In this document: in pieces, positions 2,950 through 59,116 of the stretch
Layout of the letters: each line of letters opens with the position of its first letter
How positions within the stretch are numbered: position 1 is the stretch's first letter
Program-made: the position numbers and the translations under genes
Notes under the pieces: model-generated
Seen by the model: only the letters and a program-made list of their open reading frames with translations
The model's database searches: none
What the model was told of the DNA's origin: nothing
DNA from: Candidatus Woesearchaeota archaeon
GTDB lineage: Archaea; Nanobdellota; Nanobdellia; Pacearchaeales; UBA284
DNA length: 64,000 nucleotides
Assembly (NCBI GenBank): GCA_964396475.1
Contig: CAYNFE010000002.1
Coordinates: 40,306-104,305, forward strand
Direction of reading: 5' to 3'

Positions 2950-3025
2950 GGGAGCCATAATGTAGTTTAGCATAGTATTCGTGCTTAGGGCGCATGCGAC
3001 GGGGGTTCAAATCCTTCTAGCCACA
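2950..3025 (+). other. tRNA-like element (canonical T-arm and 3' acceptor strand, but no matching 5' acceptor/D-arm): degenerate, split or non-canonical-intron tRNA candidate
   Basis: GGGGG-TTCAAAT-CCTTC followed by TAGCCAC-A at 3001-3025 forms a tRNA-like T-arm plus acceptor 3' strand. The only upstream partner is GTGCTTA at 2981-2987, pairing 6 of 7 positions, with a 13-nt GC-rich linker containing the palindrome CGCATGCG. The whole span is 76 nt. Confidence 0.3.
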
Positions 3026-3074
3026 TCTAAACACATCATAACATTTAAAAGAATTCTCAGGGTAATATTATTAT

Positions 3075-3150
3075 AGCGGGGTGGAGCAGTCTGGAGTGCT
3101 CGCAGGGCCCATAACCCTGAGGTCGCGTGGTTCAAATCCCGCCCCCGCTA
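3075..3150 (+). tRNA. initiator tRNA-Met (anticodon CAT)
   Basis: AGCGGGG-TG-GAGC..GCTC-G-CAGGG-CCCATAA-CCCTG-AGGTC-GCG(T)GG-TTCAAAT-CCCGC-CCCCGCT-A. The A1:U72 pair and three G:C pairs closing the anticodon stem are archaeal initiator hallmarks. The T-stem appears to carry one bulged U. Confidence 0.8.
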
Positions 3151-7250: not shown

Positions 7251-7371
7251 TTTAAGCCAGATAATACTGATTCAAAAAGATTACATATTTGGGTGAAAAA
7301 AAACCTAAAGAATGGAAAATTAAGATTAGAAGATAAAGTACCTGACAAAGGAATTCTGAAAGAAAGATAAA

Positions 7372-7380
7372 TTTTTATAT
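7372..7380 (+). promoter_or_regulatory. TATA-like box (TTTTTATAT) 21-29 nt upstream of the fen ATG; leaderless-type promoter
   Basis: The AT-rich TATA-like element sits at the archaeal BRE/TATA distance if transcription starts at or near the ATG. Confidence 0.3.
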
Positions 7381-7400
7381 TTGAATTCTTTCCTGTTTTT

Positions 7401-8447
7401 ATGGGCCTTCAGATAAGTGAATTAGTTCCAAAAAAAGAGATAAAGCTTGAAGAATTGAGAGGAAAGATCATAGCTGTTGATGCTTTCAATATTCTTTATC
7501 AATTCTTAGCTAATATTAGACAAATAGATGGAACCCCTTTGATGGACAAGAAAAAGAGAGTCACTTCTCATCTTTCTGGACTTTTCTATAGAACCACTAA
7601 TCTGATGACTAAAGGTCTTAAATTAGTTTATGCTTTTGACGGTAAGCCTCCTAAGCTAAAAGAGAAAACAACAGAGAAGAGAGCAGAAAGAAAAGAAATA
7701 GCTAGAGAAAGATATGAAAAAGCTAAGGAAAAAGGTTCTGAGGCTGAAATGTTTAAGTGGTCTAGACAAACCCTAAGATTAAATGATGAGATGATTGATG
7801 AGAGTAAAGAATTGTTAAAAACATTAGGCTTGCCAGTTGTTCAAGCGCCTAGTGAAGGAGAAGCCCAATGTTCTCATATGGTTAAATACAAAGATGCTTA
7901 CACTGTTGCAAGCCAGGATTATGACTCTTTGCTTTTCGGAGCCACTAAACTTGTGCAAAATTTAACTCTTGCAAGAAAAAGACGTACATCAAGTGGAGCT
8001 TATGTTTCTATAAGTCCTATAATGATTGAGCTTGACAATGTCCTGAATTTCTTACAGATTAATCATGATCAACTAATCTGTCTTGGCATCTTAGTTGGAA
8101 CAGATTTTAATCCACAAGGAATTAAAAGTATAGGGCCTAAAAGAGCTTTACAGCTTGTCAAGACATATAAGCAGCCAGTCTTACTTTTCCAGGCTCTTGA
8201 TAAATTAGTTAATGAAGGTAAGATTCCAAAGCCAGAATTTGATTGGCAAGAAATTTTTTCTCTGTTTAAAAAACCAGATGTTAAGAAAGAATATAAGATT
8301 GAATTTAAAAAAGTGAATGAAGAAAAAGTTAGAGAATTATTATGTAAAGAACATGATTTTTCTGAAAATAGAGTTAATAATGCTTTGAAAAGAGTTGCAG
8401 ATTATGAAAAAGCTGCTAAACAAAAAGATCTCAAGAGCTTTTTCTAA
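7401..8447 (+). CDS. fen: flap endonuclease 1 (FEN-1)
   Basis: N-terminus MGLQISELVPKKEI...LRGKIIAVDAFNILYQFL, central GLPVVQAPSEGEAQC, and the H3TH region GILVGTDFNP...GIGPKRA all match FEN-1. Confidence 0.9.
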   Translation: MGLQISELVPKKEIKLEELRGKIIAVDAFNILYQFLANIRQIDGTPLMDKKKRVTSHLSGLFYRTTNLMTKGLKLVYAFDGKPPKLKEKTTEKRAERKEIARERYEKAKEKGSEAEMFKWSRQTLRLNDEMIDESKELLKTLGLPVVQAPSEGEAQCSHMVKYKDAYTVASQDYDSLLFGATKLVQNLTLARKRRTSSGAYVSISPIMIELDNVLNFLQINHDQLICLGILVGTDFNPQGIKSIGPKRALQLVKTYKQPVLLFQALDKLVNEGKIPKPEFDWQEIFSLFKKPDVKKEYKIEFKKVNEEKVRELLCKEHDFSENRVNNALKRVADYEKAAKQKDLKSFF

Positions 8448-23346: not shown

Positions 23347-23730
23347 ATGAAAGAAATAATTCCTCCAAAAATTTCAATTGATGAGTTTAGAGTCGAGACT
23401 TTAAATCTTGGCAAGAAAATATTAGATGTTTCTTTTAACTATAATATAACAATAGAAAACTTAAGTGATAATGGAAAAATGTATAGGAGATTTATGCTTG
23501 GAGACAATGTCATAAATTTTATTATTGAAATAATGGGTGATTTGAAAAAAGTGGCAGGAACAAACATTGCTGAGATTAAAGATCATGAAGAGATAAAGGA
23601 AAAATTAGTAAATACTATGGATAGAATACTATTAGAAATTAATGATCTTTCTAAAATAAAAGATCATGAGAAATTTATGAAAGCGTTTAATAGAATTAAT
23701 TGTTATAAGATAGGTTTTGCTGAAGCCTAG
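23347..23730 (+). CDS. hypothetical protein
   Basis: 127-aa ORF. Confidence 0.4.
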   Translation: MKEIIPPKISIDEFRVETLNLGKKILDVSFNYNITIENLSDNGKMYRRFMLGDNVINFIIEIMGDLKKVAGTNIAEIKDHEEIKEKLVNTMDRILLEINDLSKIKDHEKFMKAFNRINCYKIGFAEA

Positions 23731-24317
23731 GTTTTTATTTCAACTTCTTTTTTTGGTTCTTTCTCAGAAAAAATTTGAGCTTGAAATCTGAAAATCTTAG
23801 TTTCTGGTTTAATCCAAGCATCTATAGGCAAGCCAGCTTTGACACACGTTGCTTTCATAAATTCTAAAGTATTCCATTTTTGTTCTACTGGCACTTGAGG
23901 CAATAGTAAGCCAGAAAAATGAAATGTCTGAACAATTAAACCATGTTTTCCTAGCTCAATCTCTTTTAGAATATCTTGACCCTTGGCTTTAATTTGTTTT
24001 GGAACTGTAAGCACAGATATTTCTATTACTATCTTATCAATTTCTTCTTTTTCTAAAGGTATAAATCTTGGGTCAGAAAAAGCAGCTGCTCTTGCTGCCT
24101 CAACAACTGCCTCAGCTAGAGGTTTGATAGGATAAGGAAAACCTATACATCCGCGAAGTTCATGAGAAGGAAATTTATTTAGTGTAACAAAAACACCTTG
24201 ACTCTTTGGGAATTCTTTTTTTTCTTCATCAAAATCTATTTCTTGATCTAAAAAGTAAGATTCTATAGAATTTCTTGCTAAACTTATTAATCTAAAACCT
24301 TGATCTAGAGATAACAT
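23727..24317 (-). CDS. AMMECR1-domain protein
   Basis: VFVTLNKFPSHELRGCIGFPYPIKPLAEAVVEAARAAAFSDPRF contains the RGCIG AMMECR1 signature. The start was moved to the internal Met (MLSLDQ...). The longer ORF-track start (24392) would translate through the tRNA-fragment repeats. Confidence 0.65.
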   Translation of the reverse strand: MLSLDQGFRLISLARNSIESYFLDQEIDFDEEKKEFPKSQGVFVTLNKFPSHELRGCIGFPYPIKPLAEAVVEAARAAAFSDPRFIPLEKEEIDKIVIEISVLTVPKQIKAKGQDILKEIELGKHGLIVQTFHFSGLLLPQVPVEQKWNTLEFMKATCVKAGLPIDAWIKPETKIFRFQAQIFSEKEPKKEVEIKT

Positions 24318-24321
24318 TTTA

Positions 24322-24413
24322 AATGCCCCTGCCGGGGTGGCAAAACCCCAATTTTTTGACAATGCCCATGTGGGGATTCGACTTTGTGGCAATGCCCCAT
24401 GAGAGATTTGACC
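24322..24413. repeat. three tandem tRNA-Glu 3'-end-like fragments (putative att-site remnants)
   Basis: aatgcccctgccggggtggcaaaacccc, caatgcccatgtggggattcgac and caatgccccatgagagatttgacc each resemble the plus-strand image of the acceptor 3' strand plus T-arm of the tRNA-Glu at 26158. That tRNA reads tgcccctaccgggattcgaacc. Confidence 0.5.
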
Positions 24414-24501
24414 TATTGGTTATACTTCAAGCTATTTTCTTGCTTTTACCTCTCTTTTTATTATGTTAATGATAAAAAGATATACTAGTATAAATAATCT
24501 G

Positions 24502-25068
24502 CTATTTTTCCTTACATATTTGATGATCTAATTCGAAGTTAAATAATATTATGTCATATAAAACGCTAGGTGTTAATCCTTCCTCTAGGTATTCATTGTA
24601 ATATAAAATTACCATTGGATCTGGACTTGATTTCTGAAATTCTTTTTTTGCGTGTCCTTCCCATGTCAAAAACTCAATAGAATTCTTTAATTTTTCTTCA
24701 TCATAGTCCTCTCCACTCCACGCACGATATAAATCAATATTCATTCTATATAAACACCTTTTAGTCGGCTCAATAATCATCACACCAAAATTATCAACAT
24801 TTGGACAATATGTATTCAAGGCAATAAACCCAGAATCTACTTGATCCTCTCGATCTCCATAAGTTTCCATTTCTAAATATCCTTCATTAGTAATATCATA
24901 ATCACAAAAAATGCTATTTACCTCATATCCTTGATCTTCTAAGAATTTCTCCTGTCTACTTTTGCCAATATCCATTGGATTATTTATGATAATTAAAGCT
25001 ATTATAACTCCAATTAATATCCACACCCATATTGGAATCTTTTTAACTTTTTCTTTTTTCATATTCAA
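24502..25068 (-). CDS. membrane-anchored protein, hypothetical (inside the putative integrated islet)
   Basis: 188 aa with an N-terminal TM helix (IPIWVWILIGVIIALIII). Acidic, Cys-containing ectodomain. Confidence 0.4.
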   Translation of the reverse strand: MNMKKEKVKKIPIWVWILIGVIIALIIINNPMDIGKSRQEKFLEDQGYEVNSIFCDYDITNEGYLEMETYGDREDQVDSGFIALNTYCPNVDNFGVMIIEPTKRCLYRMNIDLYRAWSGEDYDEEKLKNSIEFLTWEGHAKKEFQKSSPDPMVILYYNEYLEEGLTPSVLYDIILFNFELDHQICKEK

Positions 25069-25130
25069 TCTAATAAAAAGTTGTTTAAATAGTTTACCGA
25101 TGACAGAAAATTCTAAATAATGTTGATCTA

Positions 25131-26036
25131 TTGTTTTTTATGGAAAAAATATGTGCTTTATGTGAAAAAGGAGGAGTTTTGTGTAATAGCCATGTCATAC
25201 CAAAATTTGTAACAGATTGGATAAAGGAAACTTCTGTAACAAAAGGGCTTAGGAATGCTAATGCTCCAAATAAAAGAATTGAAGATGGTGTAAAAGAACA
25301 ATTACTGTGTAAAGACTGCGAAAAATTATTTTCTAAATATGAAACATATTTTGCCAATAAAATATTTCACCCTTTCTTAAATGGCCAGGAGCAATTTACA
25401 TTTAACGAAAATTTAAATAAATTTATTACTTCTATTTCTTGGAGACTTCTTAAAACATCTATGGATTCTTATTGTAAGTCCTTTCCAAAATTCAAAAAGA
25501 GTATAGAACAAGCAGAAAAAAATTGGAGAGAATATCTTTTAGGAAATTCTCAGCTGAAATTCCAAAACCATATGTTTTTCTTTAAGGAAAATAGATTGAA
25601 CTATAAAAAGGTTGATAAGAATTTTCTTTGGTATATGCAGAGAGCAATTGATGGGACTATAGCAACTGGAAATGATGTGCTTTTTGTCTATTTCAAATTT
25701 CCAAATGTTTTCTTTGTATCTACAATAAAACCTTTAGATTTTTTAGGTGGAGGAGAAGCACTAATGGAAGCAGAAAAAGGAGTTTTTATTGTGGGGGGTG
25801 GGAGCAATTTAATAAAGAAAGGAAGGTCTATTAAGGTGAGAAATTTAGCTTTTTATCCATCATTTGAAGACTTTTTATTAAGTAGAGTGAGGGAAGCATT
25901 TTCTAAAAAAATCTCTGAAAAACAAATTAAGAAAATTAGATCCTTACTAGAGAAGAACAATTCTAGAATGTTGGGATCAAAAACATTTACGGCATTTTTG
26001 GATGCAAAAAAAATAGAAGAAGATAAAGAAGGATAG
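25131..26036 (+). CDS. HNH-nuclease-like N-terminal domain protein (inside the putative integrated islet)
   Basis: CALCEKGGVLCNSHVIPKF ... LLCKDCEK fits the HNH pattern C-x2-C...(D/N)H-I-P...L-C-x2-C. A ~200-aa C-terminal domain of unknown function follows. Confidence 0.45.
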   Translation: MFFMEKICALCEKGGVLCNSHVIPKFVTDWIKETSVTKGLRNANAPNKRIEDGVKEQLLCKDCEKLFSKYETYFANKIFHPFLNGQEQFTFNENLNKFITSISWRLLKTSMDSYCKSFPKFKKSIEQAEKNWREYLLGNSQLKFQNHMFFFKENRLNYKKVDKNFLWYMQRAIDGTIATGNDVLFVYFKFPNVFFVSTIKPLDFLGGGEALMEAEKGVFIVGGGSNLIKKGRSIKVRNLAFYPSFEDFLLSRVREAFSKKISEKQIKKIRSLLEKNNSRMLGSKTFTAFLDAKKIEEDKEG

Positions 26037-26066
26037 TTCTTTTTTTTAATTCAAATCCGTATTGGA

Positions 26067-26092
26067 GCATTGAATTTTTATGGATTCAATGC
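26067..26092. terminator. perfect 9-bp inverted repeat hairpin (gcattgaat-N8-attcaatgc) downstream of the HNH-domain gene
   Basis: Read directly from the sequence. The 3' arm overlaps the first tRNA-fragment repeat. Confidence 0.35.
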
Positions 26093-26143
26093 CCCGTCCA
26101 AGATTCGAATTATTTTTTGTTCACCCCATACGGAGATTTGAAC
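26087..26143. repeat. two further tRNA-Glu 3'-end-like fragments immediately upstream (plus-strand) of the intact tRNA-Glu
   Basis: caatgccccgtccaagattcgaat matches the tRNA-Glu 3' end at 16 of 22 positions. tcaccccatacggagatttgaac is a second related copy. Confidence 0.5.
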
Positions 26144-26157
26144 AATTTATGCGTAAA

Positions 26158-26230
26158 TGCCCCTACCGGGATTCGAACCCGGGTCTAAGCCTCGAAAGGG
26201 CTTGATGCTTGGCCTCTACACCATAGGGGC
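26158..26230 (-). tRNA. tRNA-Glu (anticodon TTC)
   Basis: The reverse complement is GCCCCTA-TG-GTG...-AAGCC-CTTTCGA-GGCTT-AGAC-CCGGG-TTCGAAT-CCCGG-TAGGGGC-A. Length 73 nt with a 7-bp acceptor stem. Confidence 0.85.
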
Positions 26231-26233
26231 AAG

Positions 26234-26347
26234 TGGGCCCGCTGGGATTTGAACCCAGGACCCCTGGCTCTCTTAGAGTCATACAACCCTAGAATGGATT
26301 GTGGCCATATAAGACCAGTGCTCTAAACCAGGCTGAGCTACGGGCCC
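26234..26347 (-). tRNA. tRNA-Ile (anticodon TAT) with a ~38-nt intron in the anticodon loop
   Basis: The reverse complement is GGGCCCG-TA-GCTC-AGCCTGGTTTA-GAGC-A-CTGGT-CTTATA, then [TGGCCACAATCCATTCTAGGGTTGTATGACTCTAAGAG], then A-GCCAG-GGGTC-CTGGG-TTCAAAT-CCCAG-CGGGCCC-A. A canonical 37/38 intron position gives the loop CU-UAU-AA. Only 3 nt separate it from tRNA-Glu. Confidence 0.65.
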
Positions 26348-36774: not shown

Positions 36775-36858
36775 GCGGGAGTGTCGGAGTGGTCAAACGA
36801 GCAGGACTTAAGATCCTGTGGCTTAGTGCCTGCGCAGGTCCGAATCCTGTCTCCCGCA
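36775..36858 (+). tRNA. tRNA-Leu (anticodon TAA)
   Basis: GCGGGAG-TG-TCG..CGA-G-CAGGA-CTTAAGA-TCCTG, then a 17-nt variable arm (TGGCTTAGTGCCTGCGC), then (G)CAGG-TCCGAAT-CCTG(T)-CTCCCGC-A. Long variable arm, 3-bp D-stem and perfect acceptor. Length 84 nt. Confidence 0.85.
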
Positions 36859-36896: not shown

Positions 36897-37159
36897 GGGT
36901 AGGTTAGGCTGGCACGCTAGCCCTGTGCCGTTTGTAAATGGGCTTTATGACAAGCTTAAGAGGAGGCGTTATATGCTTGCTCGAAAGTCCTGGCTTGGAC
37001 GTTGAGGTCTTGTCCTGCTTGATCTTGCCCTAATAAACCGGGTCAGTTCCGGAAGGAGGCAGCCCTAAGTTAGAGTTAAGATGCTTGTAGGGTTGCAAGG
37101 CTGAGGAAGAGTTAGGGTAGCTTTCTTGTTGGTATAAAAGCAAATCCTCGAACCTGCCC
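36897..37159 (+). ncRNA. ffs: signal recognition particle RNA (7S/SRP RNA)
   Basis: ACCGGGTCAGTTCCGGAAGGAGGCAGCC at 37038-37066 matches the universally conserved SRP RNA helix-8 motif with its GGAA tetraloop (compare E. coli 4.5S GGUCAGGUCCGGAAGGAAGCAGCC). The 5' GGGTAGGTT (36897) pairs with the 3' AACCTGCCC (37151-37159), closing the molecule. The region is GC-enriched, has no ORF, and is followed by a T5 tract. Confidence 0.55.
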
Positions 37160-39806: not shown

Positions 39807-41102
39807 ATGCTTGATCCAAAGATTATAAGAGAAAAGCCAAAAGAGGTTAAAGAGAGTTTAAGAAGAAGGCAGCTTGATCCTAAACTTGTTGATGCTTTTA
39901 TTACAAAAGATAAGAAATACAGAAAATTAAAAGTAGGAGTTGAAAAATTAAGATATCAACGTAATAAGATTTCTGAAGATATTAACAGATTGAAAAAATT
40001 AAATAAAAGTGCAGAAGTAAGAAAAAAGATAAAAGAGGCTAAAGAAATTCCTGGCAAAATCAGGAAGTTAGAAGAGGAAATAAAGAGACTAGAACCGAAT
40101 ATAAAAAATCTGCTTCTTACAATTCCAAATATACCAGCAAAAGATGTTCCTATAGGTAAGAGTGAGAAAGACAATAAAATTCTAAAAAAAGTTGGAACAA
40201 TACCAAAATTTAAATTCAAATTAAAGGGCCATGAAGAACTGGCTATTGATTTAAATTTATTAGATATTGAGAGAGCTGCTAAAGTTTCAGGAGCTCGTTT
40301 TTATTATCTAAAAAATGAACTTGTTATTCTTAATTACGCTTTACAAAAATTTGCTTTAGATTTCATGAAGAAGAAAGGCCATCAACTTATGGAGCCTCCT
40401 TTTATGTTAAAAAAAAGACCTTATGAAGGTGTTGTTCATCTTGAGCAATTTGAAGAGATGTTGTATAAAATTCATGATGAAGATCTTTACCTGATAGCAA
40501 CAGCAGAACATCCAATGGCAGCTTATTATATGAATGAAATCTTAAATGAGAGAAAATTGCCAATAAAGTTTGCTGGAATAAGCCCTTGTTTTAGGAAAGA
40601 AGCTGGAAGTCACGGCAGAGATACTAAAGGAATCTTCAGAGTTCATCAATTTAATAAGATAGAGCAATTCATATTTTGTAGACCAGAAGAGAGTGAGAAA
40701 TTTCATAAAGAACTTTTAAAGAATACAGAAGAAATTTACAAAGCATTAAAGATTCCATATAGAGTTGTTTTGATGTGCACAAGTGAAACAAATAAACTTG
40801 CTTCAAAACATTATGATATTGATTTGTGGTTCCCTGCTCAAAAAGTTTATAGAGAGATTGCTTCATGTTCTAATTGTACAGATTATCAAGCCAGAAGGTT
40901 GAATATTAGATTCTTTGATAAAAAAGGCCATAGAAAATTTGTGCATACATTAAATTCTACTGCTATACCAACTCAAAGAACTATCGCAGCCATTCTTGAA
41001 AATTATCAACAAAAGGATGGCAGCATTAAGATTCCTAATGTTCTACAAAAATATTGTGGATTCAAAAAAATTGAAAAGATAAAAATCAAGAAAAAAAAGT
41101 GA
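39807..41102 (+). CDS. serS: seryl-tRNA synthetase
   Basis: N-terminal coiled-coil arm, then class II motifs: PFMLKKRPYEGVVHLEQFEE, FRKEAGSHGRDTKGIFRVHQFNKIEQF (motif 2) and the motif 3 region. Length 431 aa. Confidence 0.9.
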   Translation: MLDPKIIREKPKEVKESLRRRQLDPKLVDAFITKDKKYRKLKVGVEKLRYQRNKISEDINRLKKLNKSAEVRKKIKEAKEIPGKIRKLEEEIKRLEPNIKNLLLTIPNIPAKDVPIGKSEKDNKILKKVGTIPKFKFKLKGHEELAIDLNLLDIERAAKVSGARFYYLKNELVILNYALQKFALDFMKKKGHQLMEPPFMLKKRPYEGVVHLEQFEEMLYKIHDEDLYLIATAEHPMAAYYMNEILNERKLPIKFAGISPCFRKEAGSHGRDTKGIFRVHQFNKIEQFIFCRPEESEKFHKELLKNTEEIYKALKIPYRVVLMCTSETNKLASKHYDIDLWFPAQKVYREIASCSNCTDYQARRLNIRFFDKKGHRKFVHTLNSTAIPTQRTIAAILENYQQKDGSIKIPNVLQKYCGFKKIEKIKIKKKK

Positions 41103-58093: not shown

Positions 58094-59116
58094 TTAAGCA
58101 GTCCAGACTGTATTTCTTCCCATTTCTTTTGCTTTATAAAGAGCAGCATCGATTCTTTTAATAAATTGATCTCTTTTTTCTTTTTTCTTTCTCTTACCAA
58201 CCCCAAATGAAGCTGTAGTTGTTCTTTTTGCCTTCTCTGGATAAAAAGACTCAATTTCTTTTCTCATAGATTCAGCTAATTTTACTGCTTCTGCAAAACT
58301 TGAATTTATAATGATTGCAAATTCCTCTCCACCATAACGGCATGCTTTTGCTTTTTTTGCCTTCTTTTGTAAAGATTTTCCTAAATTAGCCAAAAGCTTG
58401 TCTCCTTCTACATGACCATATGTATCATTATAGCTTTTGAAAAAATCCAAATCAAGAATTATTAAAGATGGATGTTTGTTATTCTCAATTTCTTTTTCTA
58501 GCATTGTTATAAAATATCTTTTATTGTATAATCCTGTAAGTTCATCAACAATTGCTCTCTTAGCTTCTTTTCCATAAAGCTTGCTGTAAAGTTTGACAAT
58601 TTTCCTTTCTTTATCATCTGCTGTTTGCTTAAGTCTAGAATGTTGGATTGCTATAGCTGTCTGGACAGCGATAGCATTTAGAACCTTAAATGTATTAATT
58701 TTAAAATTTCTGTATTGTGCCATTATAATTATTGTTCCTATAGGACCAGAATAAGACATTAGTGGAGCAGAAATCATGCTTATCACTCCAAAATTTCTAA
58801 GTCTTGTATTAGGACGAGTTTGTTTTAGGAAGATTGGTGATGCATTTTTAATAGTATCTTCAGAAATAATTTTTAAAAGTTCTTCAAATTCTGGATGTAG
58901 ATTATCTTTTAAAGGACTTTTAATCTCAATTTTTTCTTTATTTTCAAGAGCCATAAAAACTAAAGCAACTCTTAATTCTTTATTAATAATCCTAACTACT
59001 TTTGTGATAAGTACATCTAAATTATCTGTAGAATTAATAGCTCTAGAGATTGTTTTTAGTATCCTAAGTTCTTTAGTTGTATGAACCAGTTTTCTGACTA
59101 CTTCTTCATTTGCCAT
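58094..59116 (-). CDS. GAF-GGDEF protein (diguanylate cyclase, intact GGEEF active site)
   Basis: The C-terminal domain DELTGLYNKRYF...LDLDFFKSYNDTYGHVEGDKLL...RYGGEEFAII...ASFGV...RIDAALYKAKEMGRNTV is a canonical GGDEF domain. The N-terminal ~170 aa are GAF-like. No RxxD I-site lies just upstream of GGEEF. Confidence 0.75.
   Translation of the reverse strand: MANEEVVRKLVHTTKELRILKTISRAINSTDNLDVLITKVVRIINKELRVALVFMALENKEKIEIKSPLKDNLHPEFEELLKIISEDTIKNASPIFLKQTRPNTRLRNFGVISMISAPLMSYSGPIGTIIIMAQYRNFKINTFKVLNAIAVQTAIAIQHSRLKQTADDKERKIVKLYSKLYGKEAKRAIVDELTGLYNKRYFITMLEKEIENNKHPSLIILDLDFFKSYNDTYGHVEGDKLLANLGKSLQKKAKKAKACRYGGEEFAIIINSSFAEAVKLAESMRKEIESFYPEKAKRTTTASFGVGKRKKKEKRDQFIKRIDAALYKAKEMGRNTVWTA

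Follow-up and report, generated by a model that had tools for sequence, protein, structure and literature searches.

A mosaic, integrase-less islet at the 3' end of a tRNA-Glu gene in a Pacearchaeota genome probably entered by site-specific recombination

We analysed a 64,000-nucleotide (nt) stretch of contig CAYNFE010000002.1 (assembly GCA_964396475.1, Candidatus Woesearchaeota archaeon; positions 40,306 to 104,305 of the forward strand), hereafter the window, in whose coordinates all positions are given unless another locus is named. In it, about 1.8 kb of DNA separates an intact tRNA-Glu gene from the gene for an AMMECR1 protein. An initial annotation, made from the sequence alone, had described this interval as an islet left by integration into the tRNA gene. 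Based on the repeats, the related genomes, and the similar islets described below, positions 24337-26153 are probably a mosaic two-gene islet that lacks an integrase and entered by site-specific recombination at the tRNA-Glu 3' end. Sequence comparison suggests that this 3' end is a recurrent hotspot in Pacearchaeota: short native-like cassettes, each with one gene or a few, are gained and lost there and also shuffled. The integration scar is of a known kind and represents a new instance in DPANN archaea, which have tiny genomes and in which gene acquisition is little known. The window is AT-rich (30.9% GC), and the nearest homologues of its AMMECR1 protein are named Candidatus Pacearchaeota (DPANN).

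Results

A direct repeat and empty sites define an insertion at tRNA-Glu

The features that bound the insertion are these (aa, amino acids; bp, base pairs; attL and attR, left and right attachment sites):

26158-26230, minus strand: tRNA-Glu(UUC), intact, the integration target (Rfam tRNA model, 60.3 bits, all stems paired; also called by ARAGORN)
26154-26170, minus strand: tRNA-proximal copy of a 17-bp repeat, an attL-like core (16 of 17 positions shared with 24320-24336)
24320-24346, minus strand: F1, the putative displaced ancestral tRNA-Glu 3' end, attR-like (20/27 match to the tRNA-Glu image defined below)
23727-24317, minus strand: AMMECR1 gene, 196 aa, the conserved right flank (Pfam PF01871, 1.2e-52)
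26234-26347, minus strand: tRNA-Ile(UAU) with a 39-nt intron, the conserved left flank (Rfam, 57.2 bits)

The first 17 nt of F1 (24320-24336, TAAATGCCCCTGCCGGG) form a direct repeat with 26154-26170 (TAAATGCCCCTACCGGG) in which 16 of 17 positions agree. The repeat consists of the last 13 nt of tRNA-Glu and the 4-nt trailer TTTA, and its two copies, 1,834 bp apart, enclose 1,817 bp.

The comparison with relatives that the initial annotation had proposed revealed an empty site. In relatives reached through AMMECR1 homologues, the gene order is conserved as GTPase, major facilitator superfamily (MFS) transporter, tRNAs, a variable segment, AMMECR1, a 127-aa gene, and RadB. In both L009/L010 (CP061211.1; AMMECR1 76% identical) and L011/L012 (73%), tRNA-Glu runs directly into the AMMECR1 start codon, so that the two genes abut and the site is empty. 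In the genome encoding P0033 (AMMECR1 61% identical), an over-called open reading frame (ORF) translates through the whole tRNA-Glu upstream of AMMECR1, and in the P0012 contig (72%) the read-through ORF takes in, at the least, the T-arm and acceptor end directly before AMMECR1. The 16/17 repeat, together with the empty sites of L009/L010, L011/L012, and P0033, bears out integration into the tRNA-Glu 3' end.

F1 retains the empty-site junction, ...CGGCAGGGGCATTTAAAATG to AMMECR1 (...CCCCGGCAGGGGCATTTAAAATG-AMMECR1 in the window versus ...CTCGGCAGGGGCATTTAAGTTAAAATG in L011), and it matches the 3' end of the tRNA-Glu allele of L062, a locus in a different genomic neighbourhood, at 16/16 positions. 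From this junction and this match, F1 is taken to be the ancestral 3' end displaced by the insertion. The 3' end of the live tRNA-Glu gene, ..CCCGGTAGGGGCA, differs from the displaced one at position 66: the live gene has T66 paired with A7, and F1 and most relatives have C66, with G7.

Images of the tRNA-Glu 3' end cluster at both ends of the islet

Images of the tRNA-Glu 3' end, extending from the T-loop through the acceptor strand and trailer, were scored by ungapped comparison with the 27-nt tRNA-Glu image. Five co-oriented images lie at 24320-24415 and 26086-26145, and one inverted image lies at 26047-26073. In addition to F1, these are:

24359-24385, minus strand: F2, tRNA-Glu 3'-end image (17/27)
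24389-24415, minus strand: F3, tRNA-Glu 3'-end image (16/27)
26086-26112, minus strand: F4, tRNA-Glu 3'-end image (19/27)
about 26117-26145, minus strand: F5, tRNA-Glu 3'-end image (15/27; local-alignment score 11)
26117-26152, minus strand: F5 with its linker, the putative left end of the inserted DNA (motif shared with L062 and L061; fold)
26047-26073, plus strand: Finv, inverted tRNA-Glu 3'-end image (17/27, opposite strand), beginning 11 nt past the stop codon of the 298-aa cargo gene

The five co-oriented fragments had been placed correctly to within 1-3 nt by the initial annotation, which missed the inverted copy. Markov shuffles of the whole window, scored on both strands, gave an expectation of about 1 image at ≥17/27 and 0.2 at ≥18/27. 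When both strands were scanned by local alignment, five of the non-tRNA peaks scoring ≥9 fell inside the two zones of ∼110 nt and four fell outside; F3 was below this score. The clustering of fragments in the two zones is far beyond chance (Poisson P = 4.7e-12), and the duplicated 3' ends, which match at 15-20 of 27 positions on formal alignment, are therefore real. One might still ask whether the fragments arose without integration, by chance similarity or through local replication slippage, since F2, F3, and F5 individually match the tRNA end at only 15-17 of 27 positions. This explanation can practically be dismissed, given a clustering probability of about 5e-12, the empty sites that reveal 1.8 kb inserted between F1 and tRNA-Glu, and the presence of the same repeat core around other inserts. 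Split or permuted tRNA halves were also ruled out, as the pieces are only ∼25 nt long, there are no 5' halves, and the empty sites explain them. An Rfam search of the fragment zones found no RNA family, and no GTTRRRY boxes were seen by eye.

The conserved motif GCATAAATTGTTCAAATC occupies 26135-26152 and is followed by a hairpin, TTGTTCA..TGAACAA, with a 7-bp stem. This motif stands directly after tRNA-Glu, at the same distance, in the window, in L062, and in L061, the sole locus recovered by a metagenome scan of 241 M records for the pattern of tRNA-Glu followed by a fragment. These three loci carry different tRNA-Glu alleles and different downstream genes, and the motif is not present in the window's nearest relatives with empty sites. 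F5 and its motif were therefore imported with the insert. The acceptor variant of F4, GGACGGGGCA, is the actual tRNA-Glu 3' end of L061, and L061 looks like L062 with two post-tRNA fragments merged into one. Because the F5 motif travelled with inserted DNA, the number of fragments is not a count of integration events in this genome, and the initial proposal that several copies imply repeated events is not supported.

Together, Finv and F4 make up an imperfect hairpin of 66 nt, whose 9-8-9 core (GCATTGAAT/ATTCAATGC) is perfect. The 131-nt stretch that holds the Finv/F4 and F5 hairpins (26030-26160) folds at -21.2 kcal/mol (z = -4.4); the F1-F3 zone had no fold stability above shuffles (z = +0.27).

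Closely spaced fragments also occur at tRNA-Ile. In L062 (7572-7881), the 3' end of tRNA-Ile recurs as a perfect 23-nt copy 67 nt downstream of the gene, with a 37-nt GC-rich spacer that contains the hairpin CGTGGA-AGCG-TCCACG, and a second, degenerate copy follows ∼110 nt further on, with no gene between copies. Fragments that lie close together with no gene between them thus arise repeatedly, in some cases recently; footprints, empty units, and accessory sites are all possibilities for what they represent.

Other islets occupy the same site

Among the relatives with filled sites, L015 has, between tRNA-Glu and AMMECR1, a single unrelated gene for a membrane-anchored protein of 181 aa. Over a length of 10.8 kb, L014 matches L015 at 99.95-99.98% identity, and it has an extra 611-bp insert right after tRNA-Glu, which contains one lipoprotein-like gene with its own TATA-like box and is flanked by a perfect 13-bp repeat, CGGCAGGGGCATT. 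The 611-bp insert is thus a natural presence/absence polymorphism that can be traced in read data. A metagenome-assembled genome (MAG) of the same population at NCBI (L013) has a 100-N gap (7307-7406) exactly between the two 13-bp repeat copies, as expected if the population were mixed for the insert and the assembly broke there.

In L062, the 13-nt core CGGCAGGGGCATT is found again, 3,150 bp after tRNA-Glu and around four genes, which encode a 380-aa protein, a 182-aa protein, and a nucleotidyltransferase/HEPN pair. The 182-aa gene is a homologue of the window's 186-aa cargo gene.

The cargo consists of a shared membrane-protein module and a phage-associated gene

The islet in the window carries two genes:

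24502-25062, minus strand: cargo gene 2, 186 aa, with an N-terminal membrane anchor (read from the sequence)
24418-25095, minus strand: module shared with the L062 tRNA-Glu islet (74% DNA identity over 597 nt, plus an 86% identical 35-nt block)
25140-26036, plus strand: cargo gene 1, 298 aa, a member of phrog_26326 (match at 2e-59)

The shared module comprises cargo gene 2, ∼30 nt upstream of it, and the 35-nt downstream block, with ∼50 unaligned nt between gene and block. The 186-aa protein is 71% identical to P0130, the 182-aa protein of L062, is not homologous to the cargo of L014/L015, and matched no family. The module stops 2 nt short of F3, which therefore marks its boundary.

The initial annotation was right in finding two cargo ORFs, one of them membrane-anchored, and had labelled the other an HNH-domain protein. 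No match to the 298-aa protein was found in Pfam, NCBIfam, PADLOC, or PDB sequence or profile searches, and a Foldseek search with its AlphaFold model (predicted local distance difference test score, pLDDT, 69.7) found nothing in PDB or BFVD; the HNH label is an unverified guess. The invariant residues of its family are CxxC..SH.IP..D..K..LCxxCE, and phrog_26326 is of unknown function. Homologues border a type I restriction-modification/NYN island and lie near genes with AbiJ, Ymh, and FRG domains (L002 1-10858; L004 536-7855); no tRNA was found near these homologue loci. These neighbourhoods suggest that phrog_26326 is associated with defence islands, and a defence role may be pursued as a lead.

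These observations bear on a further explanation, in which the 298-aa protein would act as a free-standing homing endonuclease of the HNH type and would have inserted itself and its neighbour by double-strand-break repair. The pattern CxxC...SH.IP...CxxCE recalls a zinc-bound HNH finger, and phages are among the carriers of the family (phrog_26326). A target duplication of 13-17 bp is not a product of homing, the same att-type repeat occurs in the L014 and L062 islets without the 298-aa gene, the homologues lie within defence islands that have no tRNA close by, and Pfam, NCBIfam, PDB sequence/profile, and fold searches yielded no HNH match. Taken together, these results make homing very improbable.

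No recombinase is encoded in the islets

As the initial annotation had stated, the islet holds no integrase: its ORFs have no Pfam match, and a search found no recombinase domain among the 39 window ORFs scanned, which included those of the islet. The 298-aa protein had no recombinase match, and its C-terminal part showed no conserved catalytic motif; only ORFs of 41 and 48 aa cross the fragments where an SSV-type split integrase was sought. No integrase was found in the L014 or L062 islets.

IMG/VR was queried with the present tRNA 3' end, tandem-fragment patterns, the conserved left-end motif, and the L014 attL junction, and returned nothing related. All matches to the tandem-fragment patterns were chance matches in coding DNA.

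Probable integration at the tRNA 3' end and possible sources of the islet

The events that would produce the observed arrangement can be outlined as follows. Crossover would occur inside the last 11-13 nt of tRNA-Glu and 2-4 nt of trailer; the incoming DNA would supply a new tRNA-Glu 3' end, so that the gene stays intact; and the old 3' end, F1, would be pushed 1.83 kb away, still abutting AMMECR1. F2-F5 and Finv would be attachment-site copies from earlier recombination events, at least some of which travel with mobile DNA. Archaeal integrases are reported to favour tRNA 3' ends, with variable 5' limits and sometimes only the acceptor end (PMC8371274). We infer a recombinase of the tyrosine-integrase type that acts in trans, its gene lying at another place in the genome or on a virus or plasmid. 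Considering the very small units, the absence of an integrase, and the recent 611-bp polymorphism, mobilisation in trans is no less likely than the decay of an element that was once complete.

Several points weigh against this interpretation. No recombinase has been identified, within a view limited to 64 kb of the genome, and the IMG/VR scans found neither a free or circular form nor an integrase-bearing parent. The GC content of the islet (29.9%, against 30.9% for the host) gives no independent sign of foreignness; a native-like composition is consistent with exchange among related Pacearchaeota. The L015 state could be a deletion between the 13-bp repeats rather than recombinase action. Finally, the 30-39-nt spacing of fragments without cargo between them is not a product of simple integration and excision.

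The initial annotation had suggested a decayed element. In that case the islet would be the remnant of one complete provirus or plasmid that later lost its own integrase, and the extra fragments would be scars of further decayed elements. The attL/attR-like repeat and the empty sites fit such a history, and tycheposon islands contain dispersed partial tRNAs along with the degraded elements that successive integrations left behind (bioRxiv 10.1101/2020.12.28.424599). The one repeat mismatch and the apparent compensation at tRNA position 7 suggest some age. On the other side, neither an integrase nor a recognisable piece of one is present in any of the three independent islets (611 bp, 1.8 kb, and 3.15 kb), the 611-bp insert, a recent polymorphism, has perfect repeats, F5 was imported and not made locally, and repeated deletion of whole elements that spared each 25-nt scar with ≤10 nt on either side is improbable. 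Decay of this kind is possible for the window; overall we consider it unlikely.

A more specific model, put forward tentatively and also judged rather doubtful, is that Pacearchaeota run an integron-like, tRNA-anchored cassette exchange at tRNA-Glu and apparently tRNA-Ile. Each cassette would carry a tRNA-Glu-3'-like site at the 3' end of its gene; a recombinase encoded elsewhere would insert, excise, and occasionally invert single-gene cassettes; and the gene-less fragments that lie close together would represent footprints or empty cassettes. In all four cases the cargo gene has a tRNA-like site downstream of it, in its own orientation, at 87 nt from the 186-aa gene (F3), 11 nt from the 298-aa gene (Finv), 64 nt from the L014 gene (core), and 85 nt from the L062 HEPN gene (core). 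The position of F3 exactly at the boundary of the L062-shared module, the single-gene 611-bp polymorphism, the attC-like imperfect 66-nt Finv/F4 hairpin in its stretch of z = -4.4, and the perfect tRNA-Ile 3'-end duplicate of L062, with no gene between, also fit this model. Set against it are the lack of a known recombinase, the handful of loci involved, the absence of a site at the junction of the 182-aa gene and the nucleotidyltransferase/HEPN (toxin-antitoxin) pair inside the L062 islet, the recovery of a single related array (L061) from the 241 M metagenome records with the pattern used, and the finding of neither IntI nor an attC consensus.

A casposon-type target duplication or a transposon was ruled out, as no terminal inverted repeats were seen by eye at the islet ends and there is no Cas1 or transposase gene.

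Consequences for AMMECR1 and its annotation

The public AMMECR1 call (P0009) is 221 aa long from TTG 24392 and runs through F1-F3; AMMECR1 homologue starts correspond to ATG 24317, which gives 196 aa. That the call reads through the first repeat set had been noted from the sequence, and judged by the homologue starts it is 25 codons too long. Such scars inflate gene calls, as in this case and in the ORFs that run through whole tRNAs in other genomes. An exact look-up of the 221-aa call had as its sole match a 2-kb Logan copy of the same locus, and an AMMECR1 scan of a genome-contig collection returned only two bacterial homologues.

In the genomes with empty sites (L009 7995-8010; L011 490-510), AMMECR1 begins with a start codon that either shares the final bases of tRNA-Glu or is ≤10 nt from them. 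AMMECR1 in relatives is therefore probably co-transcribed with the tRNAs, with tRNA processing releasing the mRNA. At every filled site, the cargo gene next to AMMECR1 points towards AMMECR1, and a co-oriented distal cargo gene of this kind would keep AMMECR1 expressed.

Other features of the window and its relatives

The tRNA-Ile(UAU) gene lies 3 nt upstream of tRNA-Glu, so that the two genes abut in the window (26158-26347), and the same adjacency is found in L011. In L009 (6564-8001) and L013-L015, a gene with an HD or GAF-HD domain separates them. Such variation between genomes may make the 3' end of tRNA-Ile another variable site. A default ARAGORN run called tRNA-Glu and missed tRNA-Ile(UAU); when introns were allowed, ARAGORN miscalled the tRNA-Ile orthologue as tRNA-Ser in L013-L015.

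Elsewhere in the window, an orphan tRNA 3'-like piece, GGGGGTTCAAATCCTTCTAGCCACA, lies at 3003-3030 (plus strand), ∼45 nt upstream of tRNA-Met (3075-3150). It is without a matching 5' acceptor strand, and the Rfam tRNA model does not reach E ≤ 1 there; the piece could be a tRNA pseudogene or one more scar. An archaeal signal recognition particle (SRP) RNA (103 bits) is located at 36897-37159 (plus strand), directly after tRNA-Leu (36775-36858). A 340-aa protein encoded at 58094-59116 (minus strand) contains a GGDEF (diguanylate cyclase) domain (1.3e-35), which is uncommon in archaea.

Discussion

The islet can be compared with four kinds of known systems. Integron cassettes are a possible analogue only. 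As may hold for the units described here, they are promoter-proximal single-gene units, each followed by a variable, partly palindromic site, that form arrays at one anchor. Unlike integrons, the present locus is anchored on a tRNA gene, and we found no IntI, attI, or attC R/L-box consensus, with no integrase among the window ORFs scanned.

The cis-mobilizable elements (CIMEs) of the Streptococcus ICESt literature are att-flanked, integrase-less, and presumed to depend on a related integrase-bearing element at the same site. The islet resembles them in being flanked by att-like repeats and in having no recombination module. CIMEs differ in that they are bacterial, do not lie at a tRNA gene, and have a known parent integrative and conjugative element (ICE); the islet is without a known parent.

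The tycheposon islands of Prochlorococcus (bioRxiv 10.1101/2020.12.28.424599) also form a tRNA-adjacent hotspot in a streamlined genome, with older DNA pushed inward, scattered partial tRNAs, and cargo of niche or defence genes. Tycheposons carry their own recombinase and replication modules; none were found here, and the units are single genes.

The islet is also like tRNA-targeted tyrosine-integrase islands, of the Islander type and of the archaeal SSV, pNOB8, and pT26-2 types, in which the target is the 3' end of a tRNA gene, the incoming DNA restores the tRNA, and an intact tRNA at one end is matched at the other by a direct repeat consisting of the displaced 3' fragment. tRNA-Glu is a frequent archaeal integration target (PMC8371274, PMC4383910). 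Unlike such islands, the islets described here have no integrase in or adjoining them, are only 0.6-3 kb long, and have a native-like composition, and the extra fragments lie 30-39 nt apart. Three features are not part of the textbook picture: the very small units, the absence of an integrase, and the 611-bp polymorphism, which is very recent. With its empty sites as controls, the locus is a clean example of a tRNA-anchored hotspot at which small surface-protein genes and phage- or defence-associated genes are swapped between lineages without a resident integrase.

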